Below, one piece after another: positions 17,021 to 64,000 of a stretch of DNA of 64,000 nucleotides; the first letter of the stretch is position 1, and the number at the start of each line of letters is the position of its first letter. Source of the stretch: an uncultured bacterium (lineage in GTDB: Bacteria; Omnitrophota; Omnitrophia; Omnitrophales; Abzuiibacteriaceae). Made by a program: the position numbers and the translations under genes. The stretch spans positions 160,001-224,000 of the forward strand of contig CAYLXA010000001.1 of the NCBI GenBank assembly GCA_964387845.1. Reading direction: 5' to 3'. The notes below the pieces were generated by a model. The model made no database searches, was not told the DNA's origin, and saw only the letters and a program-made list of their open reading frames with translations.

Positions 17021-17027
17021 GATGATT

Positions 17028-19246: not shown

Positions 19247-19248
19247 GA

Positions 19249-19659: not shown

Positions 19660-19678
19660 TCCATTGCGATGAATCTAA

Positions 19679-20152: not shown

Positions 20153-20175
20153 GATGAAACTCCTCCTTCGTTTGT

Positions 20176-21384
20176 TTATTGAGGGCTGAAAATTTTAATC
20201 ATATCGAAAATAGGAAGCAGAATAGAGAGCATGATAAAGCCGACTATTACCCCCATGAAAAGAACAAAAAACGGCTCGAGGCTGTCTGTTAACTTCTTGA
20301 GGCTTCTTGCGATCAGTTCGTCATAAAAGCTGGCAATTTTATGCAGCATTTTATCGAGGCTGCCCGAATGTTCGCCGGTTGCCACCATCTGAACTACATC
20401 GTTCGGGACAGCCGAACTCTTCTGTAACGTATCGGCTAACTTGCCGCCACCCTGAACGGATTCATAGGTTTTTTTAAAGATATCCTGAAAGATACTATTC
20501 GATGTTAAATTTTGTGAAATTTCGAGCGTTTGCAGAATATTCACGCCGCTTGAAATCATGAGCGCCACGCTGCGGCTCCAGCGGCTGATTTCGATTCGCT
20601 TGATTAATAATCCAACCAGCGGAAATGACAGCCAAAAACTGTCCCATGCCCGCCGGAAAAATTCAATTCGCATAAAAACCGGAAATAAAGCGGCAAACAC
20701 CGCGAAAAACGCCAAGATCCAAAAACCAAACTGCCGCATCCACAAGCTGAGGTTATAGACCATTTGCGTGGGCAACGGAAGCGATACGCCTGATTTGCTG
20801 AAAATCGTAATAAAAGAAGGCACAACCCATACCATCATAAATGCTACCACCGCGACACTGGCCAGCATCAGAACGATCGGATAAGCAAGCGCAGAACTGA
20901 TTTTATGATTGAGTTCCGATTTGGCTTCTTCCAGCTGTGCCACATAACGCAGAACCTGCGATAAATTTCCGCCGGCCTCCCCCACTTTCATCATGGCACG
21001 ATACAGAGACGGAAATAGATGTTCGTGATGCGCTGATGCTTCTGACAAACTTTCACCGTTTTCGATCCGGGCAATCAGATTCTTAACGGTTTCTTTAAAA
21101 GATTGATTTTCAACCTGATGAACAATTGTTTGAAGTGCGGAAAGCATCGGAAGACCGGCTTCCAGCATGTTGCTGAGCTGCACGTAAAAAAGTATCACAT
21201 CGTCTGGCGAAACACGGTTTCCAAAACTCATCGCAACTGGCGAAGCTTTCGAGCGTTTGATGGATGCGACTAAGTAACCCTGCTTAACCAACTGATCAGC
21301 CAGCGCCTTTTCGGAAATCGCTTCCGTAATTCCTTGCACTTTCCTGCCGGATTGATCATGGACTTTATAAACGTAAGAAGGCAT
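20176..21384 (-). CDS. gspF: Type II secretion system F / type IV pilus platform protein PilC
   Basis: 402 aa with two GspF repeats and 3 TM helices. Confidence 0.88.
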   Translation of the reverse strand: MPSYVYKVHDQSGRKVQGITEAISEKALADQLVKQGYLVASIKRSKASPVAMSFGNRVSPDDVILFYVQLSNMLEAGLPMLSALQTIVHQVENQSFKETVKNLIARIENGESLSEASAHHEHLFPSLYRAMMKVGEAGGNLSQVLRYVAQLEEAKSELNHKISSALAYPIVLMLASVAVVAFMMVWVVPSFITIFSKSGVSLPLPTQMVYNLSLWMRQFGFWILAFFAVFAALFPVFMRIEFFRRAWDSFWLSFPLVGLLIKRIEISRWSRSVALMISSGVNILQTLEISQNLTSNSIFQDIFKKTYESVQGGGKLADTLQKSSAVPNDVVQMVATGEHSGSLDKMLHKIASFYDELIARSLKKLTDSLEPFFVLFMGVIVGFIMLSILLPIFDMIKIFSPQ

Positions 21385-21390
21385 TGCTTA

Positions 21391-23869: not shown

Positions 23870-26287
23870 TTAGATTTTTGATGAAGTTGTTTTACCCAAA
23901 ATCGCCGACAAAAACACTTCCGGCGTCATGGATTGATGATTAAAGGTGTTGACCTGAAAAACGGCTTTAACCTTTAATTTCTCGATTTCGGTATTCATTT
24001 TATCTTTAATTTGAGCCACTTCCTGCGCATCGGCTTCTACGATTGCGGCGAGCCCTTTGCCTTCGTCATAACGCAAAACCATCTCGGTCGTTTTGCGTAA
24101 AGCGCCTTTCATGATTTCGCTCATTTTGCTGACTTCCTGATCCGGCATGGCTTCACCGTTTTTCAATTCTGCATGATCGGGATGAACGCCGATCACGGAA
24201 AACGGCGTCAATTTTTTCTGGCTTTCCTTCAGGCGCTGCTTGACTTCCAATTCAAAGACAGAATCAATTGTATGATATGGAAGCGTAAAAGTAAATTTGG
24301 TTCCTTTGCTGAATTCACTTTCAATCCACATTTTTCCGCCATGCATTTCGACAAGCCCTTTCGAGATCGCGAGGCCCAGTCCGGTTCCTTTGGCACCGCC
24401 GCCCGCCGCGCGGCCGAATTGTTCAAATTTACCGAATACTTTGCTTAAATTTTCACGTGCGATCCCGGTCCCGGTATCCGCCACGCTGAATTCCATTTCC
24501 TGCCCTTTGTGAACGGTTGTGACAACGACCATGCCGCTTTCCGGCGTAAATTTAGCCGCATTGCCGATTAAATTGGTAATGATTTGGATCAATTTGTCGC
24601 GATCAACAAACACCTTGGGTAATTTTTTATCAAAACTGGAATGAAGCGATATTTTTTTGCTTTCAAAATGGCCGCGGTAGGTTTCTAAAACGTCTTCGAT
24701 CAAAGCTTTGACATCCACGAATGAACGATTGAGCACGATTTTTCCCGCTTCGATTTTCGAAATATCAAGCAGGTCGTTGATGATCCGCGCCAAACGGTCA
24801 ATATTGCTCTTCGCGGTCGTTAAGAATTTTCTTTGCTTTTCATTCACTTCACCGCTCACACCGTCCAAGACTAGCGAAACAAATTCCTTAATAATGGCCA
24901 GCGGTGTCCTGAGCTCGTGGCTGACGGTTGAAACGAATTCGTTTTTCATCTGATCAATTTCTTTTTCCTTTGTCATGTCGCGGAAAATTTCGATTGCACC
25001 GATGGTTTTTCCTTCGCTGACGACCGGCGAAATCGTGAGCGCCACCGGAAAACGGGGCTGATTTTGGGAAGCGTAATAAACAGAAGTCGATGTGCTGCGG
25101 CCCGTCGTTAAAACCGACTGCAGCGGATCTTTGCTTTTATCGATTTCTTTTCCTTTATCATCCTGAAGTTTCACGACTTCGTGCAGGAATTTTCCGGACA
25201 CACTTTTCAAAGATTCACCGAGCATCTCCTCGGCCTGCTTGTTCATCATCATGATTTTACCTTCACGGTCCGTTGCGATCATGCCTTCCCCGATGCTTTC
25301 GAGCAGCGCTTCGTCTTTGGCCTTGGCTTGCTCGATTTCCTCTACTTTGAGGACGAGTTCCCGCGTTTTCTCCCGGACTTTTTGTTCGAGGCCGCCGTAG
25401 GATTCTTTGAGCTTCACCGTCATTTGATTAAAAGCTTTTGCCAGTTCGCCGACTTCGTCGTTGGATTCAACCGGAATTTGATAGTTGAGGTTTCCTTTTC
25501 CGATCACTTCAGCGCCTTGCTGAAGCGCGCTAATCGGCCGCGAAATCGACTGCGAAATCAGAAAGCCAAGAATAATGGCAAGCAAAACCGCGAAAATACT
25601 GACCTGCGTGATAAAACGCGTAGAACCTTTCAATAATGTAAGCGTTTCCTGGACTACGCGATCCACATTGTTGGATGTAACAACGAGCGATTCGCCCAGC
25701 TTTTTGCCGCGCCGCTCGACATATTGTTCAAGCCCCGATTTATACTCCTGCTTAAGCCGCCAATAATCGGCGCTTTCAAGCATCCGGATTGCTTCTTCGC
25801 GCATCCCGCCATCCACCGCTGCGATGGCTTTGTATTCCAGATCGACAAATGACTGTTTTGCTTTTTGAACATCCAAGAAAGATTTTTTGTCCTCAACGTC
25901 GCCTTTATCGATACTTTCTTTGATCACATTGCCAAGCTGCGGCTCCATATCTTTGTAGCGGTATTTCCATTTGAGATCGCCCGTCATCGCGTAATTGCGC
26001 GCCGCCTCCGTCAGGACTTGGTCATAGTAACGAATTTGCTGAGCGAGGCTGTCGAGACGGGATGTGCGTTCGATTTCTTTGAGTCCCTTGGGAATATCTT
26101 CGGTGAGCGGGTCGTAGAGCTTTTTCATTTCTTTAAATGAAAAAAGGCTCACAATCCCCACCAGTGACGCGATCACAAGGAATCCGGCCATGAGCCGCGT
26201 CGCGATGTTTAAATTCCGAAACATTTGCATAAAAGCCCCTGTGCTAGGTTGGAAAGGCGCACAATTACAGTTAATCTTTATCGGCAA
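23870..26287 (-). CDS. Sensor histidine kinase (TM, HAMP, PAS, HisKA, HATPase_c)
   Basis: HAMP-like EVIGKGNLNYQIPVESNDEVGELAKAFNQM. H-box FVSTVSHELRTPL. G-boxes DTGTGIA and GTGLGLAI. The true start may be the internal MQMF. Confidence 0.85.
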   Translation of the reverse strand: MPIKINCNCAPFQPSTGAFMQMFRNLNIATRLMAGFLVIASLVGIVSLFSFKEMKKLYDPLTEDIPKGLKEIERTSRLDSLAQQIRYYDQVLTEAARNYAMTGDLKWKYRYKDMEPQLGNVIKESIDKGDVEDKKSFLDVQKAKQSFVDLEYKAIAAVDGGMREEAIRMLESADYWRLKQEYKSGLEQYVERRGKKLGESLVVTSNNVDRVVQETLTLLKGSTRFITQVSIFAVLLAIILGFLISQSISRPISALQQGAEVIGKGNLNYQIPVESNDEVGELAKAFNQMTVKLKESYGGLEQKVREKTRELVLKVEEIEQAKAKDEALLESIGEGMIATDREGKIMMMNKQAEEMLGESLKSVSGKFLHEVVKLQDDKGKEIDKSKDPLQSVLTTGRSTSTSVYYASQNQPRFPVALTISPVVSEGKTIGAIEIFRDMTKEKEIDQMKNEFVSTVSHELRTPLAIIKEFVSLVLDGVSGEVNEKQRKFLTTAKSNIDRLARIINDLLDISKIEAGKIVLNRSFVDVKALIEDVLETYRGHFESKKISLHSSFDKKLPKVFVDRDKLIQIITNLIGNAAKFTPESGMVVVTTVHKGQEMEFSVADTGTGIARENLSKVFGKFEQFGRAAGGGAKGTGLGLAISKGLVEMHGGKMWIESEFSKGTKFTFTLPYHTIDSVFELEVKQRLKESQKKLTPFSVIGVHPDHAELKNGEAMPDQEVSKMSEIMKGALRKTTEMVLRYDEGKGLAAIVEADAQEVAQIKDKMNTEIEKLKVKAVFQVNTFNHQSMTPEVFLSAILGKTTSSKI

Positions 26288-40543: not shown

Positions 40544-42370
40544 CTAATTTACTTCCTGCAGCGACATGACAGGCGCATACAGCCCTTTTTGCTCCCGCGT
40601 CCACCAAGCGCCCGTCGCTTTTCGTGTTTTAAAATCCGTAAAATGGTATTCATACAAAACAGCGCGCAAATATTGAGGCGCTTTCTCCGGAAACGGATTT
40701 TTCTTCATCAATCCGAGCACTTCCTTCGAATTTTCCAGGATCTTTTTCGAAAAGGCAATCAACCAGCGGTTGTTTTGAAAACGCCCGAGCGCGGCAAACC
40801 ACATCTGCCAATCCAGGCGCGGCTGGTGCGGAATATTAAATTTCGGACGGCGCGTCACATCGCCGGGCTTATATTGAAATTCATATTCAAGCCACGTTTC
40901 ACCGTCTTCCGATCCCTCAATCATAATTTCCGGGCGTTTCGTGGTCATGACGGCAAACAAACCGTAACCATTGACGACTTGAAAAGACGACACGATTTCG
41001 GACAGAAAACGGATCGGCCGGAGGACGTAAGGGCGGCCGAAAAGCCGGTCAAGCGATTGCCCAACCGAAACCACCAACAACACGACGAGCATCATCACCG
41101 TCATTTTTTTCCGCAATGAAAGCGCCGGTGCACCATTTTGCCGAACGGATTTCTCACTTTCTTTCCGCCAGCCAAGCGTGCCGAGCACTTGGTCATCGAG
41201 CAGCATCAAGCAAAGCGCCATCGTGAGCAGATTGAAAAAGCAATAATTACCGGTTGCGAGAATGACGATCTGAAATGTGATTAATAGACTGTAAGCCCAA
41301 AGTCTTATTTTTTTCGGCGAGAAAATAAAAAACGGCACAATGAGCTCAATCGCAAACATGTACACGGCCGACACTTTTTGAAACCAGAGCGGCAGCTGGT
41401 GTATATACCACGCAACCCAGGTCGGAAGCGGCTGAGTTTCGTAATGATACAGAAGCGCCGTCAAATCGCGCCAAGTGGCATCACCGCTTGCCAGCTTCAC
41501 AAATCCGGAGAAGAACATCAAACGAAACAATAAAAATTTTAAAAGCCAAACGGCGAGCTTCGGCGGCTCGGGGCTTTCGGCTAGATGGTCAAACCGTTTG
41601 AAAGGCGATAAAAAAATGGTGAGAAATCCCGCTTCAAGCAAAAGCGCATCCCATTGGAATGATAAGAACTCGCGCCCGACATTTGCGATGGATAAATAAA
41701 ACAGCCACAACAAAAAGGAAACAGGTCCCGGATAAACGCCGGCGATTAATAGAATGGAACCGATGGTTCCGGCCGCACAAATGAAGTGGAGGGCAAAATC
41801 GTTTGCGCCGAACCAAAACAAAGTCGGCAGCAAAAAGAATTTTTCGAGCCCGATTTTTTCGGAAACCGCATTTAAAAAACTCTGGGCCGGCAAAATACCG
41901 TCTGTTCCCAAAAGCGCCGAGATCTGGGTCCACATCGAAACAAATGCAAGCAAATAAATGAAACCGATGGATTTTACGAAAATCCAGCGGACAATCGACA
42001 TTGGCGGAGCGCAAAGAGTGCAGGATTCGCCGGATTTTGAAAAAAACAGGCGGTTTTGCGCGACCAACTTGTAAACGAATTCTGAGACAGGTTTAAACAG
42101 CGGAACATGCTGATAGGCCCGCAAAAGCCACCGGTAGCGCGGCGACACCGACAAAACCCGGAAAGCGGCTTCTGCGGCGCGGTAGACGGAACCATCCGGG
42201 TCAACCAACTGAATCGCCTGACGGAATTGCGATTCGGGAATCTGCGGAAACTGAGCAGTAACTTCTTGGTAAGGCGCGTAATCAATCGCGGCGCCCGTTA
42301 TTTTCTTGGAGCGGTTAACCCAGCGAGTGCAAAAGGCACAATCGCCGTCGTAAATGAGGAGCGGTTTCAT
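40544..42370 (-). CDS. DCC1-like thiol-disulfide oxidoreductase (DUF393) fused to HTTM / lipase-maturation-factor-like membrane domain
   Basis: N-terminus LIYDGDCAFCTRWV, then ~10 predicted TM helices and a C-terminal LMF-like region. Confidence 0.6.
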   Translation of the reverse strand: MKPLLIYDGDCAFCTRWVNRSKKITGAAIDYAPYQEVTAQFPQIPESQFRQAIQLVDPDGSVYRAAEAAFRVLSVSPRYRWLLRAYQHVPLFKPVSEFVYKLVAQNRLFFSKSGESCTLCAPPMSIVRWIFVKSIGFIYLLAFVSMWTQISALLGTDGILPAQSFLNAVSEKIGLEKFFLLPTLFWFGANDFALHFICAAGTIGSILLIAGVYPGPVSFLLWLFYLSIANVGREFLSFQWDALLLEAGFLTIFLSPFKRFDHLAESPEPPKLAVWLLKFLLFRLMFFSGFVKLASGDATWRDLTALLYHYETQPLPTWVAWYIHQLPLWFQKVSAVYMFAIELIVPFFIFSPKKIRLWAYSLLITFQIVILATGNYCFFNLLTMALCLMLLDDQVLGTLGWRKESEKSVRQNGAPALSLRKKMTVMMLVVLLVVSVGQSLDRLFGRPYVLRPIRFLSEIVSSFQVVNGYGLFAVMTTKRPEIMIEGSEDGETWLEYEFQYKPGDVTRRPKFNIPHQPRLDWQMWFAALGRFQNNRWLIAFSKKILENSKEVLGLMKKNPFPEKAPQYLRAVLYEYHFTDFKTRKATGAWWTREQKGLYAPVMSLQEVN

Positions 42371-47280: not shown

Positions 47281-48744
47281 ATGAATCCTGTTCTGTTTTC
47301 CATCATTGTGATCGCGGCTTGCTTCGGCATTTTCTATCTTTTCATGAAGAAGCAGGAAGACCTCCAGCGGCGAGAAAATATGCCGCAACCGAGCGGCGAT
47401 ACACCTCAAGGCGAAGTCACGGACACCATTTATCAGGAAATCAGCAAACTAAACGTTCCGACTTTTGCGAAGTCTCAAGTTTCACAAACCCTCGCCAAAA
47501 TTGTCGATCAGGAAATCCACAAAACCAAAGCCTACGTTTCCCAGCAAGTCGAGAAAAAATACACGAAAGTCCTGGAAGAAAAAACAAAAGAAGTTAAGGT
47601 CATTACGCAAAAGTATGAGGCAAGCGAGAAAAAATACGAAGGCGTGGTAAAAGAGAAAAAACAAACCGAGGCCGTGATGAAATCTATCGCGGAAGGGTTG
47701 GTTGTTGTGAATGAAAAAGGCGAAACGCTGCTCATGAATCCGGCCGCCGAGAAAATTCTCGGGGTCAGCAAGGAAAATTTGGTCGGTAAAAACGTTTCCA
47801 CCGCGCAAAAGGAAGGCAAGGTGATTTCACTTGCCCAGCAAACACCCGGTAAAGAAGAAAGCGAAATCACGGTCGTCAGCGAAGACGACAACACAAAGCG
47901 TGTCATCCGTTCCAGCACGGCCGTCATTCAAAATGAATCCGGGCAAACCGTCGGCATGGTGTCGGTTTTAACGGACGTTACCAAGCAAAAAGAGCTTGAT
48001 GAATTAAAAAATAAGTTTGTCTCGAACGTTTCGCACGAACTTCGCGCGCCGATGAATTGCATCAAAGAGTCGATTAATTTATTGCTTGAGCGCTTTGCAG
48101 GCGAAGTGAACCCCGAGCAACAGAAAATTCTGGAGCTTGCCAAACGCAATATCATCCGGCTTTCCGATTTGATTAATGACCTTCTGGATTTGGCCAAATT
48201 GGAATCCAAAGAATACAAATTGAAATATTCCACGTTCCGCCTGGAGGGGTTATTGCATCAAGTCGTTGCAACCTTTGATGCCTGGGCAAAAAGCAAGAAA
48301 GTTACTCTGGAATTCAAAAGCAATCCCGCTTCAATCGAAATTGAAGCCGATCATGACAAAATCATTCAGATTTTGACCAACCTGGTCAGCAACGCGCTTA
48401 AGTTTACGCCTGAGAACGGTAAAATTACGCTGGATGCCAAGTTGCTGCTTGGTGATACGCCGGGAGCACAAGGTTACGTGCAGGTCACCGTACAAGATTC
48501 GGGTGTCGGCATGACACAGGAAGACATTAAAAAACTGTTCCAAAAATTCGTGCAAGTGAGCTCCGCAACCAAAACAACCGCGACCGGCACAGGGCTTGGC
48601 CTTGCGATCGTCAAGGAAATCTGCGATATGCACGGCGGCCGCGTATGGGTTGAAAGCGAAGTCGAAAAAGGCAGCCGTTTTATGTTCGTGCTTCCCCAGC
48701 GCAATCCAAAACCTGAAGCTGCGCCGGCGGCTCAGGCCGCTTAA
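47281..48744 (+). CDS. Sensor histidine kinase with PAS domain
   Basis: TM, then PAS (EGLVVVNEKGETLLMNPAAEKILG), H-box FVSNVSHELRAPM, and HATPase GTGLGLAIVKE. Confidence 0.85.
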   Translation: MNPVLFSIIVIAACFGIFYLFMKKQEDLQRRENMPQPSGDTPQGEVTDTIYQEISKLNVPTFAKSQVSQTLAKIVDQEIHKTKAYVSQQVEKKYTKVLEEKTKEVKVITQKYEASEKKYEGVVKEKKQTEAVMKSIAEGLVVVNEKGETLLMNPAAEKILGVSKENLVGKNVSTAQKEGKVISLAQQTPGKEESEITVVSEDDNTKRVIRSSTAVIQNESGQTVGMVSVLTDVTKQKELDELKNKFVSNVSHELRAPMNCIKESINLLLERFAGEVNPEQQKILELAKRNIIRLSDLINDLLDLAKLESKEYKLKYSTFRLEGLLHQVVATFDAWAKSKKVTLEFKSNPASIEIEADHDKIIQILTNLVSNALKFTPENGKITLDAKLLLGDTPGAQGYVQVTVQDSGVGMTQEDIKKLFQKFVQVSSATKTTATGTGLGLAIVKEICDMHGGRVWVESEVEKGSRFMFVLPQRNPKPEAAPAAQAA

Positions 48745-51025: not shown

Positions 51026-51669
51026 AACCGCCCCCCTTCCATTTCCAATATTCCCGCCAACTTTTCACGCATTTTCTGTCCCGCCTGCCACAAATGCGCT
51101 TTCACGGCACCTTCACTCAATTCCATGCTTTCGGCAATTTCCAAAAGACTCAAACCTTCCAAATACCGGAGTGCAAATGCGCTGCGCTGTTGAAAAGGCA
51201 GGGTTTCAAGCGCCGCAAAGATCGCCGACTGAATTTCCTGATTCATGACTGTTCTTAATGCGCTTGGAGCCGAAGACGGCGCCTGATCAAGCGGGTTTGC
51301 CACTTCACCCTTCTCATTCGTGAAACTTGCCGCAATTGGCGGCTGTTTTTGTGCTCTCCGTTTCCGGAGAAAATCTTTGCAGCTATTCATCAAAATCCGG
51401 TACAGCCATGTCGAAAACTTGCTGCTGCCTTTAAACTGCGGAAGATTTTGGTACACTTTCACGAATGATTCTTGCGCCACATCGCGCGCATCTTCAAGAT
51501 TGCCCAGAAACGAAAATGCCGCGTGAACGGCGCGTTCTTGATGAGCCTTCACCAGCTCACCGAACGCTTTAACATCTCCGCCGCGTGCTTTTTCGATTAA
51601 TTCCTTTTCAATCGAAGCCTGCGTTTTAAGTTCTGGCATTCTTCTCTCTCCGGGCCTTCTTTTTTTCAA
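51022..51669 (-). CDS. RNA polymerase sigma factor, ECF subfamily
   Basis: Region 2 (ESFVKVYQNLPQF...WLYRILMN) and region 4 HTH (LSLLEIAESMELSEGAVKAHLWQA). The start may be the internal MPELK. Confidence 0.85.
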   Translation of the reverse strand: MKKRRPGERRMPELKTQASIEKELIEKARGGDVKAFGELVKAHQERAVHAAFSFLGNLEDARDVAQESFVKVYQNLPQFKGSSKFSTWLYRILMNSCKDFLRKRRAQKQPPIAASFTNEKGEVANPLDQAPSSAPSALRTVMNQEIQSAIFAALETLPFQQRSAFALRYLEGLSLLEIAESMELSEGAVKAHLWQAGQKMREKLAGILEMEGGRL

Positions 51670-52285
51670 AATGGTTATTCAAACGCGGATGATTTTCCTT
51701 AAATTGCCTGACCCGGTCAGGATTGTTTTGTTTCCATTCTGCGAACTGTTGCCGTTTTTCCCGTTTCATTTGTTCAAACTTTTCGGGATTTTCTTCCTTC
51801 ATCCTCTTCCACTCTTCGCGCTTTTGCTGCCATTTCTGCTGTTTCTCCGCAAATTTCGGATGTTCCTGTAAAAATTTCTGATAGCGTTCCGGATTTTCTG
51901 ATTTCCAGTGCTCGAACTTCGCGCGGCGCTCCTTCATCATTCCGCGGAATTTTTCCGGATTCTCCTCTTTTAATTGCTGGAGTTTTTCTTTCCGCTCGGA
52001 AATAAACTTTTCCTTCATTTGTTCGTATTTTTCAGGATCGCTCTGCTTCAAGTTTTCCATCCGCTGACGAATCCCGTCTTTACGCTCCAGCGCAAGCCGC
52101 TTGAATTCCTCCGGATTTTCTTCCCGGAGCTGTTTCCATTTTTGAATCCTGGCCTGGATTTCTTCCTGACTTAACTCAGATTGAGAACCAGTTTCGGCCG
52201 ACACGGGCGGCGCAAATAACCCGGCGGTAAAACCAATCAACATCACGAGCGGTATTGCAGCTTGTGTAAAATGTTTGCGATTCAT
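51626..52285 (-). CDS. Periplasmic repeat protein (Spy/CpxP-like or related) with ~6 periodic ENPE(K/R)(F/Y) repeats
   Basis: Signal peptide, then EENPEEFK / SDPEKYEQ / EENPEKFR / SENPERYQ / EENPEKFE / NNPDRVRQ at a spacing of roughly 20-25 aa. Confidence 0.5.
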   Translation of the reverse strand: MNRKHFTQAAIPLVMLIGFTAGLFAPPVSAETGSQSELSQEEIQARIQKWKQLREENPEEFKRLALERKDGIRQRMENLKQSDPEKYEQMKEKFISERKEKLQQLKEENPEKFRGMMKERRAKFEHWKSENPERYQKFLQEHPKFAEKQQKWQQKREEWKRMKEENPEKFEQMKREKRQQFAEWKQNNPDRVRQFKENHPRLNNHFEKKKARREKNART

Positions 52286-55017: not shown

Positions 55018-55278
55018 GTGCCAATGGCAAAAGCAAATTCAGCGTTCATGAAACCTTTGACGGTTAGTTCTGAGCTCGCAACGGTTGTCGGAAAAGGTCC
55101 GATGGCCCGCAGTGAAGTAGTTAAGAAGCTCTGGGCATACATTAAGAAGAACAACCTTCAAGATGCAAAAAACAAACGGAATATTAATGCGGATGCCAAT
55201 TTGAAAGCAGTGTTCGGCGGCAAATCAGTCGTCAACATGTTTGAAATGACAAAGCTCGTTTCAAAGCATTTGTCATAA
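55018..55278 (+). CDS. SWIB/MDM2 domain protein
   Basis: ...ARSEVVKKLWAYIKKNNLQDAKNKRNINADANLKAVFGG... is typical of a SWIB domain. Confidence 0.8.
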   Translation: MPMAKANSAFMKPLTVSSELATVVGKGPMARSEVVKKLWAYIKKNNLQDAKNKRNINADANLKAVFGGKSVVNMFEMTKLVSKHLS

Positions 55279-55295
55279 ATTCGCCTTCTAAACGC

Positions 55296-55350
55296 AAAAC
55301 CGCACTCACCGGTACACATGCATTTCTACCAGTGAGTGCGGTTTTTTTCT
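55296..55350 (+). terminator. Rho-independent terminator after the SWIB gene
   Basis: AACCGCACTCACCGGT...ACCAGTGAGTGCGGTTTTTTTCT. Confidence 0.8.
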
Positions 55351-55448
55351 CTCACCCAGACTCATTTTCATTAAATAACCAATTTGATTGATAAAAAATG
55401 AGTCTGACCCCAATGCGTTGTTGGCAGCATTGGGGCTACCATTCAAAA

Positions 55449-55646
55449 TTAGCGAGCGCGCGGCGCTTTCCCTGCTAACTCAAATCCCTTGCGCTTCACA
55501 GCCTTTGCCATTCTTGCCAAGGCCTCGCCGGGCGAACGGCCTTCGGTTAGATTATTCATGCAAATTGCGGCAAACCCGCGCCGGTTCTTGATTTTAAAAA
55601 TGGATACACGGCCGGTTGAAAGCTTCTTTAAAATTTTCTTTGCCAT
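55449..55646 (-). CDS. Small basic hypothetical protein (65 aa)
   Basis: The ORF is followed on its own strand by the hairpin GGGGTCAGACTCATTTTTT. No family recognised. Confidence 0.3.
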   Translation of the reverse strand: MAKKILKKLSTGRVSIFKIKNRRGFAAICMNNLTEGRSPGEALARMAKAVKRKGFELAGKAPRAR

Positions 55647-55741
55647 AAAAACTCCTTTCTTTGAAAAGTAAGCCGGATTAACGTACTTAACTTAACGGAC
55701 TTTTGATTCAAAGTATTGAGAAAATTAAATCTGGAAAGGTG

Positions 55742-56212
55742 CTAGGAGAAAACTTTCGGAAAACCGACGCGTAAGTAGTAAATGAAATGGCATTCACAAA
55801 TCGAATCGGAATCGACGGTTTTGATAACCACGGATACCGGTAAATCAGCTTTTTTTGATTCCTTAAGCTGCGTCAAAGTTTTTTCAATGAGCAAAGGATC
55901 TGCCTTTGCTTCCGCGATTAATTCTTTCGAAGTTGCTTTCAAAAATGAGATATCGCCTTTTTTGGTGATCAGCAGATTTTCGGAAAGATTCAGGAAGGTT
56001 CCGCACAATGTTCCACCGGCAACTTCAGCCAGCGTAAAAAGCGAGCCGGCCTGATAAGTTTTAAAATGATTGAGAAGTCCTTGGGCCGGATTCATGGCGA
56101 GAGAAACAGAACCGTATTCAGCATGCTTTACACGGATTCCAAGCGGCCGGACAAACGGAATCCGGTCAATATAAGCTTGCAGTGATTCAAGTGTTAAGGA
56201 TGCGGGCTGCAT
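55742..56212 (-). CDS. Hotdog-fold thioesterase (PaaI/YiiD_C-like)
   Basis: ...SLFTLAEVAGGTLCG... plus 156-aa size. Confidence 0.55.
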   Translation of the reverse strand: MQPASLTLESLQAYIDRIPFVRPLGIRVKHAEYGSVSLAMNPAQGLLNHFKTYQAGSLFTLAEVAGGTLCGTFLNLSENLLITKKGDISFLKATSKELIAEAKADPLLIEKTLTQLKESKKADLPVSVVIKTVDSDSICECHFIYYLRVGFPKVFS

Positions 56213-56259: not shown

Positions 56260-59200
56260 TCAATCGTACCAGTTCATGTTGAATTTCTGCTTGCAGTGTT
56301 CGCACATCCAAAACTGGCGCTTGCGCATTTTCAAGCTTGAACCATACAGCATCAGCGGAACGCCGATTAAGACGGGAAGCAAAATGCATCCTATGATGAT
56401 TAACATGCGAGCAGTCGTTGAACGTATGTTTTCGGTATGCAAAAGGTCGATTTGCCTGGTTGCCTTGTTACAGCTCGGACAGCGGATCATATCCGGAAGC
56501 CCCTCGCCTTTTGTATCTCCCAAAATTCCAAGCGATTCAACGGCGTTGGCGCGTACCGTCGCATCGGGATCTGCGAGCAATTGGATCAAACCGAATGCCG
56601 CACGCTTAACACCGATCCGGCCGAGTGCTTGTGAACATTTAGCACGTACACTGGGTGCGGTATGCGTCAAAAGTTCCATTAATGGATCAACCGCTCTTTG
56701 ATCACCAATTCTTCCAAGCGCCTCAGCCGCATTGGCTTGGATCGTAGAATCCGTTTCTGACAGAGCTTGAATGAGCGAATCGGCCGCGCGCTGGTCGCGG
56801 ATTCTGCCCAATGCTTCGGCTGATTTTGCGCGAACTTCGGAATCATAATCCTTAAGCGATTGGATCAACGGAAAGCAGGCTGCCGGATCGCCGATTTTTC
56901 CCAAAATTTCAGCTGCTTTTGCCCTTAACGTATAATCCGGCTCTTTCAAAGAAGGGATCAAATACGGCACAACCGCATCCCCGAGCAGCGCCAAGTAATG
57001 CGCAACTTTGTTTCGGACATTCGGATCCGGATCTCTCATGGCATCTACCAAGCAAATAATGGCTTTTTTGCCTCCGATTTTCCAGACTACTTCGAAAATT
57101 TTGATCCGCATATTGTTATCCGCATCTTTGGACGATTCAATAAGCCCGTCCAACGCCGAACCTCCGATAGCGCCCAAAGCCCATGCCGCTTTTGCCTGCA
57201 CCGTAAAATCCGGATCTTTTCGGAGAATTTTAATTAAAGGATCGACTGCATGCTTATCTTTAATTTCGCCCAGCACTTCCACAACTTTCCCGCGAACTGC
57301 TGCTTCCGAATCCTTCAATGCCTCAAGCAAGTACTGAACAGCAGAACTACCTAAGGCACCGACCGCTTCTCCGGCCTTCGCGCGGACCAAATGGTTTTCG
57401 TCTTTCATGGCAACCACGAGCGAGCGGATGGCTCTCTTGTCTTTTATTTTCCCCAGAACTTCGGCTGATTTAGCTCGGACACTGGCAGATTTATCGTCCA
57501 ATGTCTTAATTAGAGGCTCAACCGCACGCTTATCGGCAATCTTGCCAAGCGCATCCGCAACTCTTGTCCGGACCGTTTCCAATTCGCTTTCCAGCGTATC
57601 TACCAGCGGATGAACGGCACGTTTATCGCCAATTTCACCCAAGCCCTCAATCGCTCTCGACTGCACATTTTCATCGCCTGTTTTCAAAACATCAATCAGC
57701 GCGAATGTGGCGCGTTTATCGCCGATTTTGCCTAAGATTTGCGCTGCCTGAGCGCGCAGACGAAGATTTTCATGTGAAAGTGCTTTAATGAGCGGTTCGA
57801 CGGCACGCGGGCCAATGAGGGCCAACACCCAGCTTGCTTGATTACGGACGTGATGATTGGTATCTTTCAGTGCGTTAATGAGCGGCTCGATAGCCTTCGG
57901 ATCGCCAATTTGGCCCAAGTGCTCCGTTGCTTTGAGCCGTACTTTTGGATCACTGTCCTTGAGGGCCTGGATCAGAAGCGGGACCACATCTTTTTCGCCG
58001 ATTTTGCCAAGCGTTTCGGCTGCTTTCGCGCGCACTTCCTGATCCGGATCGCCCAAAATTTGGATCACGGGATAAATCGCTTCTTTATTGCCTATGCGCC
58101 CGAGCGCTTCGGCTGATTTTGCCCGGACAATCGCATCTTTATCTTGAAGTATTTTAATAAGCGGCAGCACGGCCTTCTGGGTATTAATTTTTCCGAGTGC
58201 TTCGGCCGATTTTCCGCGTACGTAACGGTTTTCATCCTTAAGCGATACGATCAAAATCTCTACCGTCGGCTCACCGATACTCACCAAAGCCGTAACGGCC
58301 GAATTCCGGACACGTTCATTTTTGTCTTTAAGCGCTTGTATGAGCGCGGGAATCGCAGGAACGCCGATTTCGGCAAGCGCCCAGGCTATTTCCTCCCGCA
58401 CGTTGTCGTTTTTATCGTTTAATGCCTGGATGAGCGGTTCGATTGCTTTCGCATCGCCAATGCGCCCCAAAAATTCAGCTGCTTTATAGCGCACGGTTGA
58501 GTGGCCGTCGTGCAATGCTTGCGCAAGCGGCATTTCGGCTTTTCGATCCGCGATTTTGCCGAGCGCTTCAACTGCTTTGGTGCGTACGTTTTCATTAGAA
58601 TCCCTGATCGCCCGAATCAAAAGTTCGACGGGACTGATTTCCTGCAGCTTTTTAAGCGCCTCCTCGGCTTTTGATTTCACCTCACCGCTTGAGCGCTTAA
58701 CTAATTGCGAAATGGGATCGATGGCCTGCTGATCGCAAATCTTACCGAGCGCTTCCACTGCCGCTGCTTGGACATTTGGATCCGAATCATTCAAAGACTG
58801 AATAAGTTGTGGAACTGATTTTTGATCGGCGATTTGGCCCAAAGCCTCGGCGGCTCTGGCACGCACAATCCCGTCGGCATCTTTTATTAACAGCTGCGTA
58901 AGCGGAAAGCTGACTTTGCGGTCGCCGATTTTTCCTAAAATTTCGGCGATTTTGGCACGGACAATCGGATCTTTGTCTTTGATGGATGCAACCAAAAGCC
59001 CCATCGCGCTTCTCCCGATATTCTGAAGAACGACCATCGACTCATGCCGCACCCAATCATTTTCATCATTTAAAACACGAATCAGCGAGCCGACTGCCGG
59101 CCCTTCAATCAGGCTGAGCGCCCAGGCAGCTTCTTTACGGACATTCTCATTAGTGTCCCGTAGAATTTCAATCAGGGGCGGTACGGCCAAAGCACCCATG

Positions 59201-59583
59201 TTGCCGAGCATCTTGGCAGTTTTAGAACGCACGGTTTCATCTTTCTCGCGGCGCAAAAGGTGAATGAGCGGAAGAACGCATTCGGGGTCTTCGATAACGC
59301 CAAGCGCTTCAGCGGCTGCATCTCTCACTTTCGAATCAGTATCTTTCAGGCATTTAATCAAAGGTTCGACAGCCTGCCGGTCTTTTAGATGGCCTAAGAG
59401 TTCGGCAGCTTTTGTCCGGACATGTGTATCTTCATCTTTGAGCGCAGCGATAAAAACGGACACTTCACGCCGGTCGCCGATCGAAGCAAGCTGTTCCAAC
59501 GACTCCCTGCGCAGAGGCCACTCTTTGGCATGCTGAATACTATCAATCAGCTCATCAGCTGCTGTCCGTTGTGCGTTGGCCAC
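56260..59583 (-). CDS. HEAT-repeat (PBS-lyase type) protein, ~30 repeats, with C-terminal TM helix flanked by CxxC pairs
   Basis: Repeated VR.KAAEALGKIGD..A..PLI.AL.D motifs throughout. C-terminus CPSCNKATRQ...ARMLIIIGCILLPVLIGVPLMLYG...CEHCKQKF. GTG start with GGAAGGAG RBS. Confidence 0.8.
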   Translation of the reverse strand: MANAQRTAADELIDSIQHAKEWPLRRESLEQLASIGDRREVSVFIAALKDEDTHVRTKAAELLGHLKDRQAVEPLIKCLKDTDSKVRDAAAEALGVIEDPECVLPLIHLLRREKDETVRSKTAKMLGNMGALAVPPLIEILRDTNENVRKEAAWALSLIEGPAVGSLIRVLNDENDWVRHESMVVLQNIGRSAMGLLVASIKDKDPIVRAKIAEILGKIGDRKVSFPLTQLLIKDADGIVRARAAEALGQIADQKSVPQLIQSLNDSDPNVQAAAVEALGKICDQQAIDPISQLVKRSSGEVKSKAEEALKKLQEISPVELLIRAIRDSNENVRTKAVEALGKIADRKAEMPLAQALHDGHSTVRYKAAEFLGRIGDAKAIEPLIQALNDKNDNVREEIAWALAEIGVPAIPALIQALKDKNERVRNSAVTALVSIGEPTVEILIVSLKDENRYVRGKSAEALGKINTQKAVLPLIKILQDKDAIVRAKSAEALGRIGNKEAIYPVIQILGDPDQEVRAKAAETLGKIGEKDVVPLLIQALKDSDPKVRLKATEHLGQIGDPKAIEPLINALKDTNHHVRNQASWVLALIGPRAVEPLIKALSHENLRLRAQAAQILGKIGDKRATFALIDVLKTGDENVQSRAIEGLGEIGDKRAVHPLVDTLESELETVRTRVADALGKIADKRAVEPLIKTLDDKSASVRAKSAEVLGKIKDKRAIRSLVVAMKDENHLVRAKAGEAVGALGSSAVQYLLEALKDSEAAVRGKVVEVLGEIKDKHAVDPLIKILRKDPDFTVQAKAAWALGAIGGSALDGLIESSKDADNNMRIKIFEVVWKIGGKKAIICLVDAMRDPDPNVRNKVAHYLALLGDAVVPYLIPSLKEPDYTLRAKAAEILGKIGDPAACFPLIQSLKDYDSEVRAKSAEALGRIRDQRAADSLIQALSETDSTIQANAAEALGRIGDQRAVDPLMELLTHTAPSVRAKCSQALGRIGVKRAAFGLIQLLADPDATVRANAVESLGILGDTKGEGLPDMIRCPSCNKATRQIDLLHTENIRSTTARMLIIIGCILLPVLIGVPLMLYGSSLKMRKRQFWMCEHCKQKFNMNWYD

Positions 59584-59841
59584 AATGAATAAACTCCTTC
59601 CTGACGCGGATACACTTTTCTTGTGCGTCGAGAGATTTAAAGCCGGTATGGCTTAAAAATTGCAGCTAAAACGATCTACATAAAGTGTCCCATATTTTTT
59701 AAAACTTACAAAATAGGCACGGTAAGCATGATGCACGGTTTTGAGAATTGCCGGAACGGACAGGTAAAATGACTTCCTAAATGGTCAAAGGAAGTCTCGG
59801 GGCTAGAATTTCAAACGCGGGATAAAGCATTCGAGAAGAGC

Positions 59842-60204
59842 TTATCGAGCGGCTTGGATTTTGCGGATTTGGCTGATCAACTTACTACTGTCGAACGGTT
59901 TTTTAAGAAACCCTTGCGCACCTTCCAAACGAAAAACGTCTTCCATGAGCGAAGCGGTTCCTGTCATGATAATGACCGGGATTTTCTTGGCTGTTACTGA
60001 ATTGATTTTCTTGAGCGCCGTGAGACCGTCCATCTCGGGCATGATCACATCCATCACAATCAAATCCGGCGGATTAGATTCGATGACTTTCAGGCCGCCC
60101 GAAATACCGGAGGCATCTTCCACCTGGAAGCCTTCCGATGCCAGGCGCATGCTAAGCGCCATTCGCAAATCATCGTCATCGTCGATTATTAAAATACGGT
60201 TCAC
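59842..60204 (-). CDS. Response regulator, receiver domain only
   Basis: ILIIDDDDD...DLIVMDVIMPEMDG...MTGTA. Confidence 0.85.
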   Translation of the reverse strand: MNRILIIDDDDDLRMALSMRLASEGFQVEDASGISGGLKVIESNPPDLIVMDVIMPEMDGLTALKKINSVTAKKIPVIIMTGTASLMEDVFRLEGAQGFLKKPFDSSKLISQIRKIQAAR

Positions 60205-60247
60205 AATGCCCTCGTTTGAAATGATTTACGACAAATCCGAGAAAAAA

Positions 60248-60847
60248 TTAACCCGTTGATTTTGCGCTCTCTGCTTGTGTCTTTACTTTTTCTAATTGCT
60301 TCCTGACTAATTCCAAGTTGTGTTTGGCGCGTTCGTAATCGGGATTTAGCTTAGTTGCCTTCAAAAAATGCTTTTCGGCTTCCTTAAACTTCTCCTGCTG
60401 AGCAAGGATGGTGCCGTAACTGTTCTGAATTTGTGCAGATTTCGGAAACCGCTTTACAGCTTCATCATAAATTTTCAACGCATCTTCATAAAGTTCGATA
60501 CTGCCTAACGCGATACCTAAATTGTTATAGGCCTCGATATAATCGGGATTCAGTTCGATTGCTTTGCGGTAATGTTTGATCGCGTCTTGAACTTTTCCGA
60601 TTGCCACAAAAGTATTCGCTAAATTGTTGTGTGCATTCACATGATTGGGATCTTTGCGGACCGTTTCTTGATAATATTTGATCGCATCATCCATTTTACC
60701 CTGCTTAATGGCTTCGTTACCCCGGTGGTAGGATTGTTCGGCACCCCTTGGTCCGCTTGAATTGACAAGGTAAATAGTCGTGGCAAGAGCAGCAATAACC
60801 ACAATCGCGACTATAAACTTTAGAGTTGGGCTAGGCAATAATTTCAT
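60248..60847 (-). CDS. TPR repeat protein with N-terminal TM anchor
   Basis: Four TPR-like units (AIKYYQETVRKDPNHVNAHNNLANTF...). Confidence 0.75.
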   Translation of the reverse strand: MKLLPSPTLKFIVAIVVIAALATTIYLVNSSGPRGAEQSYHRGNEAIKQGKMDDAIKYYQETVRKDPNHVNAHNNLANTFVAIGKVQDAIKHYRKAIELNPDYIEAYNNLGIALGSIELYEDALKIYDEAVKRFPKSAQIQNSYGTILAQQEKFKEAEKHFLKATKLNPDYERAKHNLELVRKQLEKVKTQAESAKSTG

Positions 60848-60917
60848 ACGATAGATTTAAAAATGTCTGCATACAATAAATCGGAATAATTGGAAATGCA
60901 AGCAGAAGATGAACGGT

Positions 60918-61463
60918 TCATTTGACGCGAGCCATCAAGCTTTCTACAATCCGAATCGACGGAAGCAGCCGCAAATTACTTTTTTGCTTAATAGCTTTGA
61001 GATACCGGCTCGTTTTTCGTACGGTTTTTGGCAATTGATTGGACGCAGCGGTAGAGACATCAAGTAAATTATCATGAATGTCGGCGAGCTTGATTAATTT
61101 GACTTCATCCGGCGCGTCCCGCAGCTGCTTGGCGTATGCCGCTTCGCACTCTTCTTCCGGCAAGCGCTTGTCCTTTGACATGAGCGCCGCCCACCGGGCA
61201 ACATCGCGCCCGAAACGCTCTTCAATATCGTCAAAATCTTTGTCGGTATCTTCGATCACGTCATGCAATACCGCGGCAGCCAAAATCTTTTCATCTTTAA
61301 CACCGAATACATGCCGTAAAGTCATGCAGACGCGGAACACATGCGCCGCATAAGGTGTTTTGTTGTCTTTGCGGTATTGCCCTTCATGAGCACGTGCCGC
61401 AAGCGAAATGGCCCGCGCTAAAAGTTCAAAATTACTTTTCGCTGATTTTGATTTACGCTTCAT
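60918..61463 (-). CDS. HD domain protein, small alarmone hydrolase-like (Rel/SpoT HD hydrolase domain)
   Basis: [21 protein letters not shown]...[11 protein letters not shown]. Confidence 0.6.
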
Positions 61464-64000
61464 ACGCTAAATTGGGCGAAAGCCATTTTTCAATTTCCTT
61501 TAAATTCATCTGCTTGCGTTTCGCATAGTCAGAGGTTTGATCTTTGTCAATCCGTCCGACGGCAAAATACTTGGCCTGCGGATGTGCGAAATAAAGCCCG
61601 CTCACGGATGCGGCCGGCCACATCGCGCAGCTTTCGGTCAATTTAATGCCCGCATTTTTTTCGGCTTGCAAAAATTGAAACAGAGTGCGCTTCTCCGTGT
61701 GATCAGGGCAAGCCGGATAACCCGGCGCCGGGCGGATGCCGCGGTATTTTTCTTTGATTAAATCTTCATTTGAGAATTTTTCGTCTTTGGCATAACCCCA
61801 ATATTCTTGCCGGACCCGTTCGTGCAGCCGCTCGGCAAAAGCTTCCGCCAGCCGGTCCGCAAGCGCTTTGGTCATGATTGAATGATAATCGTCATTTTCT
61901 GACTCAAACTTTTTTACCAATGAATCTATTTTAATACCGGCCGTGACCGCAAAAACGCCAAGATAATCTTTCGCGCCGGAATTTTTTGGCGCAATAAAAT
62001 CAGAAAGCGCAAAATAAGGATCATTTTCCGATTTAAGAACCTGCGATTGCTGCCTTAAAGTATGAAAAATGGCCGCCACTTTATTCCGCTTCTCATCCTC
62101 ATAAACTTCAATATCGTCGCCCACGCTGTTGGCCGGATAAAGCGCAAATACCGCATTCGCTGCAAGCGACTTTTGTGCGATCATTTTTTGCAGGAGCCGC
62201 CCAGCATCTTCAAAAAGCTTTTTGGCTTCTTTGCCGATTACTTTGTCTTCTAAGATCTGCGGATATTTCCCTTTCAGTTCCCACGTTTGGAAAAACGGCG
62301 TCCAGTCGATGTAATTTGCGAGTTCATCCAGCGGATAATTTTTGAGAATTTTCAAACCCGGAAACGCAGGCTTCACGATTTTTGTTTTTGCCCAATCGGT
62401 TTTGAATGCACGCTCCCTGGCTTGTGAAATCGGGAGATACTTCACATCTTCTTTTTTCCCAAGGTGCTCCTTCCGGATTTTTTCGTAATCCTCTTTCTTT
62501 TCTGCCGCAAATTTCTCTTTGATCTGCGGAGCCAAAATATTCGATGCCATATTGACGCTTCGTGAAGCATCCAGCACATGGACGGTCGGGCCGCTATATT
62601 GCGGCGCAATCTTAACGGCAGTATGCGTAATCGAGGTCGTTGCACCGCCGATAAAAAGCGGCACCTTAAAGCCCTGGCGTTCCATTTCCTTGGCCACGTG
62701 CACCATTTCATCCAAACTCGGCGTAATCAGGCCGCTCAAGCCAATCACGCTCACGTTTTTTTCTTTGGCGGTTTCCAATATTTTTTCGCAAGGCGTCATG
62801 ACACCGAGATCAATGATTTCATAGTTGTTGCACGCGAGCACAACACCCACAATATTTTTTCCGATATCATGCACATCGCCCTTCACGGTTGCGAGCAGAA
62901 TTCTCCCGGCTGTTTTCGCGCCGGTTTTTTCTTTTTCTTTCTCAATGTAAGGCGTGAGAATGGAAACGGCCTTTTTCATAACACGAGCTGATTTAACCAC
63001 TTGCGGCAAAAACATCTTCCCCGATCCAAAAAGATCCCCCACAATGTTCATGCCGCTCATGAGCGGGCCTTCAATTACATCGAGAGGCTTAGGATATTTC
63101 TGACGTGCTTCCTCAACGTCTTGATCAATGTAATCCGTGATGCCGTGCACAAGCGCATGCGCAAGACGTTCTTCAACCGGCGCCTTCCGCCATTTTTCAT
63201 CCTTAACGGTAACTTTCCCCTGCTTTTTCGCAGTTTCGGCAAACTTCAAAAGCCGCTCGGTTGCATCCGGCTTTCGGTTGAGGACAACATCTTCGACAAG
63301 CCCCAAAAGATCTTTTGGAATTTCATCGTAAACGGTAATCAAACCGGCGTTCACAATTCCCATGTCCATACCGGCTTTGATTGCGTGAAATAAAAATGCC
63401 GAGTGCATGGCTTCGCGAATGCTGTTGATGCCGCGAAATGAAAACGAGAGATTGCTGATGCCGCCTGAAATATGGACAAGCGGAAAACACCTTTTAATTT
63501 CGCGTGCGGCTTCGATAAATTCCACGGCATAATTGTTGTGCTCTTCCATTCCCGTGGCAACCGTCAAAATATTCGGGTCAAAAATAATATCCTGCGGCGG
63601 AAAATGAATTTTCTCAGTCAGTAATTTGTAAGCACGCGAGCAAATTTCGATTTTACGCTTGGCCGTATCGGCCTGCCCTTTTTCATCAAATGCCATCACA
63701 ATGGCTGCGGCGCCATATTGGCGGATCTTGCGCGCTTGCTCCAAAAATTTCTCCTCACCTTCTTTGAGCGAAATTGAATTCACAACGCCTTTGCCTTGAA
63801 TACATTTCAGGCCGGCTTCGATGACAGTCCATTTGGAAGAATCGATCATGATCGGCACGCGCGCGATATCGGGTTCAGACGCTATCAGATTCAAAAATTT
63901 CGTCATCGCCGCTTCGGAATCAAGCAAACCTTCGTCAAAATTGATATCAATGATCTGCGCACCGGCCTCCACTTGCTGCCTAGCAACTTTCAAGGCTGAG
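61453..64000 (-). CDS. metH: Methionine synthase (B12-dependent), 5'-truncated by window edge
   Basis: Pterin-binding domain ([19 protein letters not shown]), B12-binding [15 protein letters not shown], and a C-terminal AdoMet-activation domain. The reading frame is open through 64000. Confidence 0.9.

Follow-up and report, generated by a model that had tools for sequence, protein, structure and literature searches.

LITAF and CDIP1 are zinc-binding monotopic membrane proteins with both ends in the cytoplasm (PMC5095921, PMC5142333). In LITAF, a hydrophobic stretch of 22–26 residues lies between two cysteine knuckles, and mutations of the zinc ligands disrupt membrane association (PMC5095921, PMC5142333); the protein had been predicted to be tail-anchored and was later shown by experiment to be monotopic (PMC5095921). 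LetA, a bacterial inner-membrane protein, carries a cytoplasmic Cys4 zinc ribbon that stabilizes its membrane segments (PMC13017536). We analyzed a 64,000-nucleotide (nt) stretch of contig CAYLXA010000001.1 (positions 160,001–224,000 of the forward strand; assembly GCA_964387845.1, from an uncultured bacterium of the Omnitrophota family Abzuiibacteriaceae), hereafter the window. Its minus strand encodes a 1107-amino-acid (aa) HEAT-repeat protein that closes with a module built like the LITAF domain, preceded by genes for a small HD hydrolase, a TPR protein and a receiver-only response regulator (HEAT, HD, TPR and REC below). Judging from sequence comparisons, the conserved unit of this locus appears to be the HEAT protein with its LITAF-like anchor.

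The HEAT-repeat protein and its C-terminal anchor

The features that concern the protein itself are the following, where HMM stands for hidden Markov model.

56260..59583, minus strand: HEAT-repeat protein with C-terminal anchor, 1107 aa (HEAT_2, HEAT_PBS; repeat HMM)
56518..59493, minus strand: HEAT array of ~32 PBS-lyase-type repeats, aa 31–1022 (self-derived repeat HMM)
56263..56490, minus strand: C-terminal anchor domain, aa 1032–1107 (anchor family alignments; sub-threshold PF10601)

The protein consists almost entirely of PBS-lyase-type repeats, as an initial annotation of this DNA had recognized: Pfam totals reach 671 bits for HEAT_2 and 404 bits for HEAT_PBS, and an HMM built from the protein itself delineates 32 units of 30–31 aa over aa 31–1022, with a spacing of 29–34 aa. 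An array of this length would form an α-solenoid of about 1000 residues acting as a protein-binding scaffold, which the last 76 residues would keep on the membrane; from the general behavior of HEAT arrays, the protein can be regarded as a putative membrane-tethered scaffold. We compared loci from genomes at graded distance (designated L001 to L018; identities are given relative to the window proteins), and orthologs of 1106–1112 aa align end to end in L001, L018, L011 and L012. Nearly all matches in a full-length search were generic HEAT proteins from many phyla, at ~30–45% identity, and among the 120 HEAT proteins returned only P0226 (981 aa) had the same C-terminal ending.

The protein contains exactly two CxxC motifs, C1035–C1038 and C1094–C1097, and a single strongly hydrophobic segment, aa 1055–1085 (Kyte–Doolittle 2.85). 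Its last 76 residues comprise CPSC, 21 mostly polar residues, MLIIIGCILLPVLIGVPLMLYGSSL, KMRKRQFWM, CEHC and KQKFNMNWYD, giving the order CxxC knuckle, hydrophobic segment, basic stretch, CxxC knuckle and WY. The segment includes G1065, G1074 and P1076 and a central P-x-L-I-G-(I/V)-P motif, and the uncharged run measures 25–31 residues. This region had been described as a split zinc ribbon bracketing a transmembrane helix; the two CxxC pairs around a hydrophobic segment are indeed present, and the whole is better described as a LITAF-like anchor.

The anchor is kept in orthologs of 50–82% identity, and it extends well past them. An exhaustive profile search with two C-termini, those of the window protein and P0226, yielded 65 cluster representatives that carry the anchor at E ≤ 1e-3, at the C-terminus in every case. 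Members are mostly 80–270 aa long; several of the 20 examined at full length have N-terminal CxxC zinc-ribbon-like pairs or other soluble regions, and HEAT arrays combined with the anchor occur in P0226, P0298 (756 aa) and the fragments P0248–P0251. In alignments of 32 and of 64–66 sequences, C4, C7, G34, G43, C63 and C66 (family numbering) are invariant and P45 is near-invariant, and the consensus reads C-x-x-C-G, ~18 residues, G-C-x3-I-L-G-x2-L-x-P-x-L-I-G-I-P-x3-Y-G, ~10 residues, W-x-C-x-x-C-G. With four invariant cysteines and conserved glycines and proline across 65 representatives, we take it that the CxxC/hydrophobic/CxxC module is not a product of chance. No Pfam or NCBIfam model reached threshold on any member scanned, and NCBIfam lacks a model of the anchor. 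When species-representative genomes were scanned twice with anchor alignments, no confirmed relative emerged, and a metagenome scan returned three loci, L010 (on the same contig as L001), L011 and L012; a word-index search with the anchor alignment retrieved seven small proteins and missed the alignment's own members. The anchor belongs to a bacterial family of considerable size that has no entry in the curated libraries searched.

The Pfam family matching most members is PF10601 (zf-LITAF-like), with 23 of 32 at E ≤ 1 and a best E of 2.3e-4; the window C-terminus matches profile positions 3–66 of 70 at 15.6 bits (E 0.018; cutoff 23.8). The likeness to LITAF and CDIP1 lies in the C-terminal position and in the succession of a CxxC knuckle, a hydrophobic insert of ~25 residues and a second CxxC knuckle, and the first AlphaFold2 model of the bacterial anchor has small β-hairpins at the knuckles, as in LITAF. 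Unlike LITAF, the bacterial anchor lacks the H-x-C-P-x-C context of the second knuckle and has an insert signature of its own (G..ILG..L.P.LIGIP...YG), after which come a basic stretch and, at the very end, [KR]WYE; moreover, the window anchor is fused to ~1000 residues of HEAT repeats, whereas LITAF is fused to a Pro-rich region. Two results weigh against kinship: none of the 32 members scanned reached the PF10601 gathering threshold, and an hhalign comparison of the anchor family with an approximate sequence of the human LITAF domain aligned the two knuckle to knuckle at an E of 0.01 and a probability of 4%. Searched as a profile against the PDB, the anchor family had no meaningful relative, the best match being the transmembrane region of the poliovirus receptor. 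We conclude that the anchor is built like a LITAF domain, a layout that suggests homology rather than demonstrating it. LetA and PqiA are also bacterial membrane proteins with a Cys4 zinc-ribbon-type motif, which is putative in the window protein. In LetA, however, the knuckles are contiguous (CxxC-x11-18-CxxC) and precede a multi-helix domain, while a hydrophobic segment is inserted between those of the window anchor; no sequence similarity of the anchor to LetA/PqiA was found.

The repeat array could also invite a different name. CpcE/CpcF, NblB and E. coli YibA-like proteins share the 30–31-aa PBS-lyase repeat type with the window protein, which scores above the NCBIfam cutoffs for CpcE (353.6 bits, cutoff 330), NblB (310.9, cutoff 300) and CpcF (224, cutoff 220), as would a phycobiliprotein lyase or degradation factor. 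Yet these totals are sums of 10–15 partial matches, accumulated over the repeats of the 1107-aa array, to models of 200–260 positions, and no single match covers a full model: the best single stretch aligns with 64 of the 260 positions of the CpcE model and with 105 of the 200 positions of the CpcF model, and the best NblB stretch, positions 31–211 of 214, contributes just one of the 10 matches that make up the sum. The scanned window open reading frames (ORFs) included no phycobilisome or photosynthesis genes, the closest long relatives are the generic HEAT proteins mentioned above, and the window protein differs from CpcE/CpcF, NblB and YibA-like proteins in being far longer, membrane-anchored and without bilin context. 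Because the cutoffs are passed only by repeat summation, we rejected the CpcE/CpcF/NblB naming, and the probability that the protein acts on phycobiliproteins is close to negligible. For annotation practice, long HEAT arrays can clear these "equivalog" cutoffs by summation alone and may therefore be named automatically as bilin lyases.

Topology of the anchor

Across 66 anchor sequences, the flank N-terminal to the hydrophobic run has a mean charge of +1.2 and is positive in 43, and the C-terminal flank has a mean charge of +2.4 and is positive in 60. A net positive charge on either side of the run, higher on the C-terminal side, argues against translocation of the tail and fits a location of both ends in the cytoplasm. 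By analogy with eukaryotic LITAF, the four cysteines would bind one Zn2+ on the cytoplasmic side; the zinc would staple together both ends of the hydrophobic segment, which would dip into the inner leaflet as a monotopic anchor, and the whole solenoid would thereby stay cytoplasmic, against the membrane. We regard such a monotopic zinc staple as probable, because the four cysteines are invariant, the center of the run is rich in proline and glycine and the flanks are positive.

The competing explanation is an ordinary transmembrane tail anchor (N-in, C-out), in which the membrane separates the two CxxC pairs and these share no zinc site, the periplasmic pair forming a disulfide or an intermolecular metal site. 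Structure prediction of the C-terminal region, which the initial annotation had proposed as a check on its split ribbon, returned a continuous helix and no closed ribbon. With 32 sequences, AlphaFold2 gave a mean predicted local distance difference test (pLDDT) score of 65, a continuous helix over residues 24–56 and short hairpins at both knuckles; with 64 sequences, the same helix had a pLDDT > 90 and the knuckles < 50, the mean pLDDT of the two runs being 65–66. The knuckles were not brought together in either run, which weighs against a shared zinc site and fits a tail anchor, as does the uninterrupted helix of 33 residues. The uncharged run, with a median of 31 residues, is enough to span a bilayer, and the tail after the segment is short (~23 residues), as in tail-anchored proteins. 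The models carry no metal; AlphaFold2 has no membrane or metal, and hydrophobic stretches are often drawn as straight helices. The more positive C-terminal flank opposes translocation, and an invariant Cys4 in zinc-ribbon spacing around a Pro/Gly-rich center fits a stapled insert. Moreover, LITAF, which has the same layout, was itself once wrongly predicted to be tail-anchored (PMC5095921). Taken together, these observations make a transmembrane tail anchor unlikely, if a serious competitor, and we prefer the monotopic zinc staple. Under either topology, the HEAT solenoid would sit at the cytoplasmic face of the membrane.

If the anchor is truly a LITAF-type monotopic staple, bacteria would have in it a compact module, transferable between proteins, that fixes large cytoplasmic ones to a single leaflet. 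The LITAF domain, which is mutated in Charcot–Marie–Tooth 1C, would then have a large sister family in prokaryotes, within reach of bacterial genetics and biochemistry.

Gene order and the REC–HEAT pairing

The genes around HEAT run in the minus-strand order metH, HD, TPR, REC, HEAT and hotdog thioesterase (region 55.7–64.0 kb). The features outside the HEAT gene are as follows.

61453..63993, minus strand: metH (B12-dependent methionine synthase), truncated at the window end to its 3′ part (Pfam Met_synt_B12 440 bits, Pterin_bind, B12-binding)
60918..61463, minus strand: small alarmone hydrolase, Mesh1-type HD, 181 aa (HD_4 58.6 bits; TIGR00691 partial; PDB 3nqw, 3nr1)
60248..60847, minus strand: TPR protein, 199 aa (TPR_1 110 bits, TPR_2 96 bits; hydropathy)
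59842..60204, minus strand: receiver-only response regulator, 120 aa (Response_reg 88.5 bits, aa 4–113)
59584..59841, minus strand: REC–HEAT spacer, 258 nt (alignment with L001)
55742..56212, minus strand: hotdog-fold thioesterase (DUF4442/YiiD_C), 156 aa (Pfam DUF4442 49 bits)
55455..55467, minus strand: terminator-like hairpin with T-run, 3′ of the thioesterase gene (consensus scan only)

The ORFs and Pfam domains confirm that a receiver-only REC gene, a TPR gene and an HD gene of ~180 aa lie directly upstream of HEAT, all four on the minus strand and where the initial annotation had placed them. The start of HD overlaps the metH stop by 11 nt, and the intergenic gaps measure 70 nt (HD–TPR), 43 nt (TPR–REC), 258 nt (REC–HEAT) and 47 nt (HEAT–thioesterase). 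In alignment with L001, the 258-nt spacer contains conserved islands and an AAGGAG Shine–Dalgarno sequence ahead of the GTG start of HEAT, suggesting a separate promoter; the spacer probably holds the HEAT gene's own promoter. The consensus scan called no minus-strand promoter or terminator within 59584..59841, and over the region the promoter/terminator scan was at background level, the number of sites not exceeding the shuffle expectation. The hairpin at 55455..55467 is a possible end of the transcription unit. An Rfam scan found no RNA elements at the locus.

The full string metH–HD–TPR–REC–HEAT–thioesterase is kept in L001–L004 (MetH 90%, HD 80%, REC 93% and HEAT 82% identical) and in L018 (HD 78%), and L013 retains metH–HD–TPR–REC (MetH 84%, HD 73%) on a contig that ends inside REC. 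Across the string-bearing loci L001–L004 and L013, MetH is 84–90% identical. Collinearity in L001–L003 and L018 also takes in unrelated genes (SWIB, frataxin, DUF4202, RNase T, Tpx), so that shared order says little about function; gene order common to close relatives is not to be taken for a module. The string breaks in L011, where MetH (73%) and a full-length HEAT-anchor protein (52%, 1112 aa) are both kept and none of HD, TPR and REC lies between their genes. The intervening genes encode an enolase-superfamily protein, a 397-aa membrane protein and a 63-aa acidic zinc ribbon, and a YceI-like gene takes the place of the thioesterase gene downstream of HEAT. Locus L012, which begins 195 nt upstream of its HEAT gene, encodes a HEAT protein of 1107 aa (50% identical) followed by other downstream genes. 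The thioesterase gene is kept 3′ of HEAT in L001 and L018 and not in L011, L012 or L015. HD and TPR are absent from the distant HEAT-anchor loci L009 and L015, and co-occurrence of HD, TPR, REC and HEAT was not found beyond the wholly collinear lineages, as judged from L011, L009, L015 and the loci of HD homologs. On these comparisons, and by the very check that the initial annotation had named, the four-gene string does not appear to be co-conserved or to form a functional unit, and we rejected it as an operon with a joint function, since it is limited to collinear close relatives and broken in L011. Because L011 keeps metH and a 1112-aa HEAT ortholog without HD, TPR and REC, the HEAT protein would be independent of these three genes.

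What remains is the possible link between REC and HEAT. L009 encodes a HEAT-anchor protein only 29% identical to the window HEAT, in a locus with a GC content of 55% (46–50% around the window locus). There, a gene for a 1193-aa sensor kinase (dCache, GAF, PAS) is followed by a 123-aa receiver-only gene and, after 41 nt, by the HEAT-anchor gene. In total, a receiver gene stands directly upstream of a HEAT-anchor gene in two of four independent lineages. Single-domain regulators such as CpdR and DivK dock on partner proteins, and a phosphorylated REC would likewise switch partner binding to the HEAT scaffold; we hold it conceivable, at rather less than even probability, that the upstream REC acts in this way. 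Since receiver-only genes are a small fraction of any genome, a single independent REC–HEAT recurrence is suggestive, though far from proof.

Three explanations can be set against one another here. According to the initial annotation, HD, TPR, REC and HEAT constitute one stringent-response or second-messenger system, in which the scaffold would organize (p)ppGpp turnover under two-component control. The genes do share a strand, with short HD–TPR and TPR–REC gaps, the string persists in L001–L004 and L018 and, up to REC, in L013, the active site of HD is complete, and an HD homolog adjoins a histidine kinase gene in L014. Yet the string is confined to loci that are collinear over the entire region, L011 has metH and HEAT without the other three, the distant loci L009 and L015 lack HD and TPR, and five HD homologs of 53–61% identity have unrelated neighbors. 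The 11-nt overlap, in addition, couples HD to metH and not to the downstream genes. Nothing links HEAT to (p)ppGpp, and we consider a single stringent-response system very unlikely; of the proposed signaling connection, the REC–HEAT part survives through the recurrence in L009, and the HD and TPR part does not. In a narrower version, REC and the HEAT-anchor protein would form a dedicated two-component output pair, with phosphorylated REC docking on the scaffold and HD and TPR as bystanders. This is favored by the kinase–REC–HEAT-anchor string of L009, found in an organism of different GC content with so divergent a HEAT protein, and by the conservation of the window REC, whose acceptor site is complete and which in L001 is more conserved (93%) than MetH (90%), HEAT being 82% identical. 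Against it, REC is missing beside HEAT in L011 and L015/L016, the L009 and window receivers are only 34% identical, which is ordinary for receivers, the 258-nt spacer hints at separate expression of HEAT, and no kinase adjoins REC in the window. A dedicated REC–HEAT pair is thus a tentative possibility, and we lean slightly towards a run of co-directional neighbors that is not one dedicated module as the best explanation of the gene order as a whole. If the pairing were real, a receiver-controlled HEAT scaffold would add a non-transcriptional type of output to two-component signaling. The most comprehensive proposal, in which the anchor would be a broad bacterial counterpart of LITAF, zinc-stapled and mounted on many cytoplasmic heads (HEAT arrays, zinc ribbons, small soluble domains), and in which the HEAT scaffold would be an output partner of REC here and in at least one distant lineage, is doubtful as a conjunction of all these parts.

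Several observations concern the neighborhoods of the compared loci. A 4049-aa ORF that lacks Pfam matches stands directly upstream of the 756-aa HEAT-anchor gene in L015/L016, with no receiver nearby, and 3′ of the gene, at 13527–18271, lies an apparent Qat-like system against phages (KAP NTPase, QatB, the product of a 434-aa gene and a TatD nuclease). The 63-aa protein encoded directly upstream of the HEAT-anchor gene in L011 (6545–6736) combines a CxxC-x-CxxC zinc ribbon with a strongly acidic tail. Just upstream of metH, where L001 has MgtC and PMSR, L018 encodes another receiver-only protein (1317–1673, 118 aa) and a methyltransferase of the PEMT/ICMT type. Directly 3′ of the thioesterase gene, L001 (15831–17197) and L018 (11203–12572) encode psd and pssA (phosphatidylserine decarboxylase and CDP-alcohol phosphatidyltransferase); neither was found anywhere in the window by tblastn, the corresponding interval being 55279–55742. 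The window thioesterase is shorter than that of relatives (156 versus 166–179 aa).

The HD hydrolase and other genes of the window

The HD protein matches HD_4 in Pfam at 58.6 bits (cutoff 27.2) over aa 18–151 and TIGR00691 (spoT_relA) partially, over model positions 1–129 of 687. Its best solved relatives are fly and human Mesh1 (3nqw and 3nr1, E 3e-20 and 6e-20), together with 5vxa, in a range up to 5e-19; after these rank Lmo0812 of Listeria, long Rel enzymes and additional small alarmone hydrolases. The initial annotation had noted a Rel/SpoT hydrolase signature, and all Rel/SpoT-type hydrolase residues are kept: in HMMER alignments to 3nqw, 3nr1 and 5vxa, R31, H41, H67–D68, E71–D72, D128 and N132 are all present. 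Aligned to Mesh1, H41, H67–D68 and D128 take the positions of the Mn2+ ligands and E71–D72 that of the catalytic pair; we take H41, H67–D68, D128, E71–D72, R31 and N132 to correspond to H35, H61–D62, D122, E65–D66, R24 and N126 of human Mesh1. Only HD_4 and HD matched in the 181-aa protein, with no synthetase, TGS or ACT domain. In its length of ~180 aa, its single HD_4 domain and its fully aligned metal and catalytic residues it resembles Mesh1 and Mesh1-L, and these alignments place it in the known class of small alarmone hydrolases (Mesh1-type), with a complete active site. The HD gene is an independent stand-alone gene, and its 11-nt overlap couples it translationally to metH and not to the genes downstream.

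The closest named homologs of HD come from one Chlamydiota metagenome-assembled genome (MAG) and one Gemmataceae MAG, whereas a 2011 census listed no RelA/SpoT homologs (RSH) for the 15 Chlamydiae, 3 Verrucomicrobia and 1 Planctomycete that it covered (PMC3153485). Since the Planctomycetes–Verrucomicrobia–Chlamydiae (PVC) superphylum was blank in that census, the Mesh1-type hydrolase of a PVC-type genome may, like animal MESH1, have a substrate other than (p)ppGpp of the cell's own making. The HD homologs of 53–61% identity lie in five unrelated neighborhoods (L005, L006/L007, L008, L014 and L017). In L014 (Chlamydiota MAG GCA_030699095.1, 9615–11309), the gene after that of the homolog (53% identical) lies on the same strand and encodes a 344-aa HisKA/HATPase histidine kinase, which makes this the sole HD neighborhood outside the window clade with any signaling gene.

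REC matches Response_reg above threshold (88.5 bits, aa 4–113) and no other domain. Its phospho-acceptor site is complete, with the acidic pocket D8–D12, the acceptor D52, and T81, F99 and K102–P103, and the NCBIfam CpdR and DivK-type models match below cutoff. As a 120-aa receiver-only protein with the full set of acceptor-site residues, it resembles CheY, DivK and CpdR; it differs from them in having no adjacent cognate kinase or known partner, its linkage to HEAT being found in only two of the four lineages. The nearest kinases in the window are PAS histidine kinases at 23870–26287 and 47281–48744. The TPR protein has ~4–5 TPR units and, consistent with the membrane anchor proposed earlier, a hydrophobic N-terminus (aa 1–32, Kyte–Doolittle 2.43) that could be an anchor or a signal; its NCBIfam matches are sub-threshold only. 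TPR identity in L013 is 49%, against 84% for REC, and the TPR gene appears to be a fast-evolving local neighbor.

Elsewhere in the window, a stand-alone SWIB/MDM2-domain protein of 86 aa (55018–55278, plus strand, 107 bits) is conserved in L001 and L018; SWIB is a eukaryote-type domain, among bacteria typical of Chlamydiae. The window also encodes frataxin and DUF4202 proteins (Pfam); together with SWIB, these genes hint at a Chlamydiota-like, probably PVC-type genome. A minus-strand ORF of 3117 aa (3933–13286) opens with a signal-like N-terminus, Pfam gave it no match at E ≤ 1e-4, and no similarity was found between it and the 4049-aa ORF upstream of the L016 HEAT-anchor gene. A type II secretion/type IV pilus-like cluster on the minus strand (14544–23088) comprises a PilO-like protein (weak CdsD_C match), PilM, T2SSF and a T2SSE ATPase. 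The LMF1 family is best known from animals; a 608-aa protein (40544–42370, minus strand) combines a DCC1-like thiol-disulfide oxidoreductase domain with both lipase maturation factor (LMF1) domains. Finally, a 219-aa protein (51626–52285, minus strand) without Pfam match combines a signal-like N-terminus with a strongly charged body in which "ENPE(K/E)F...K/R/E/Q" motifs recur.

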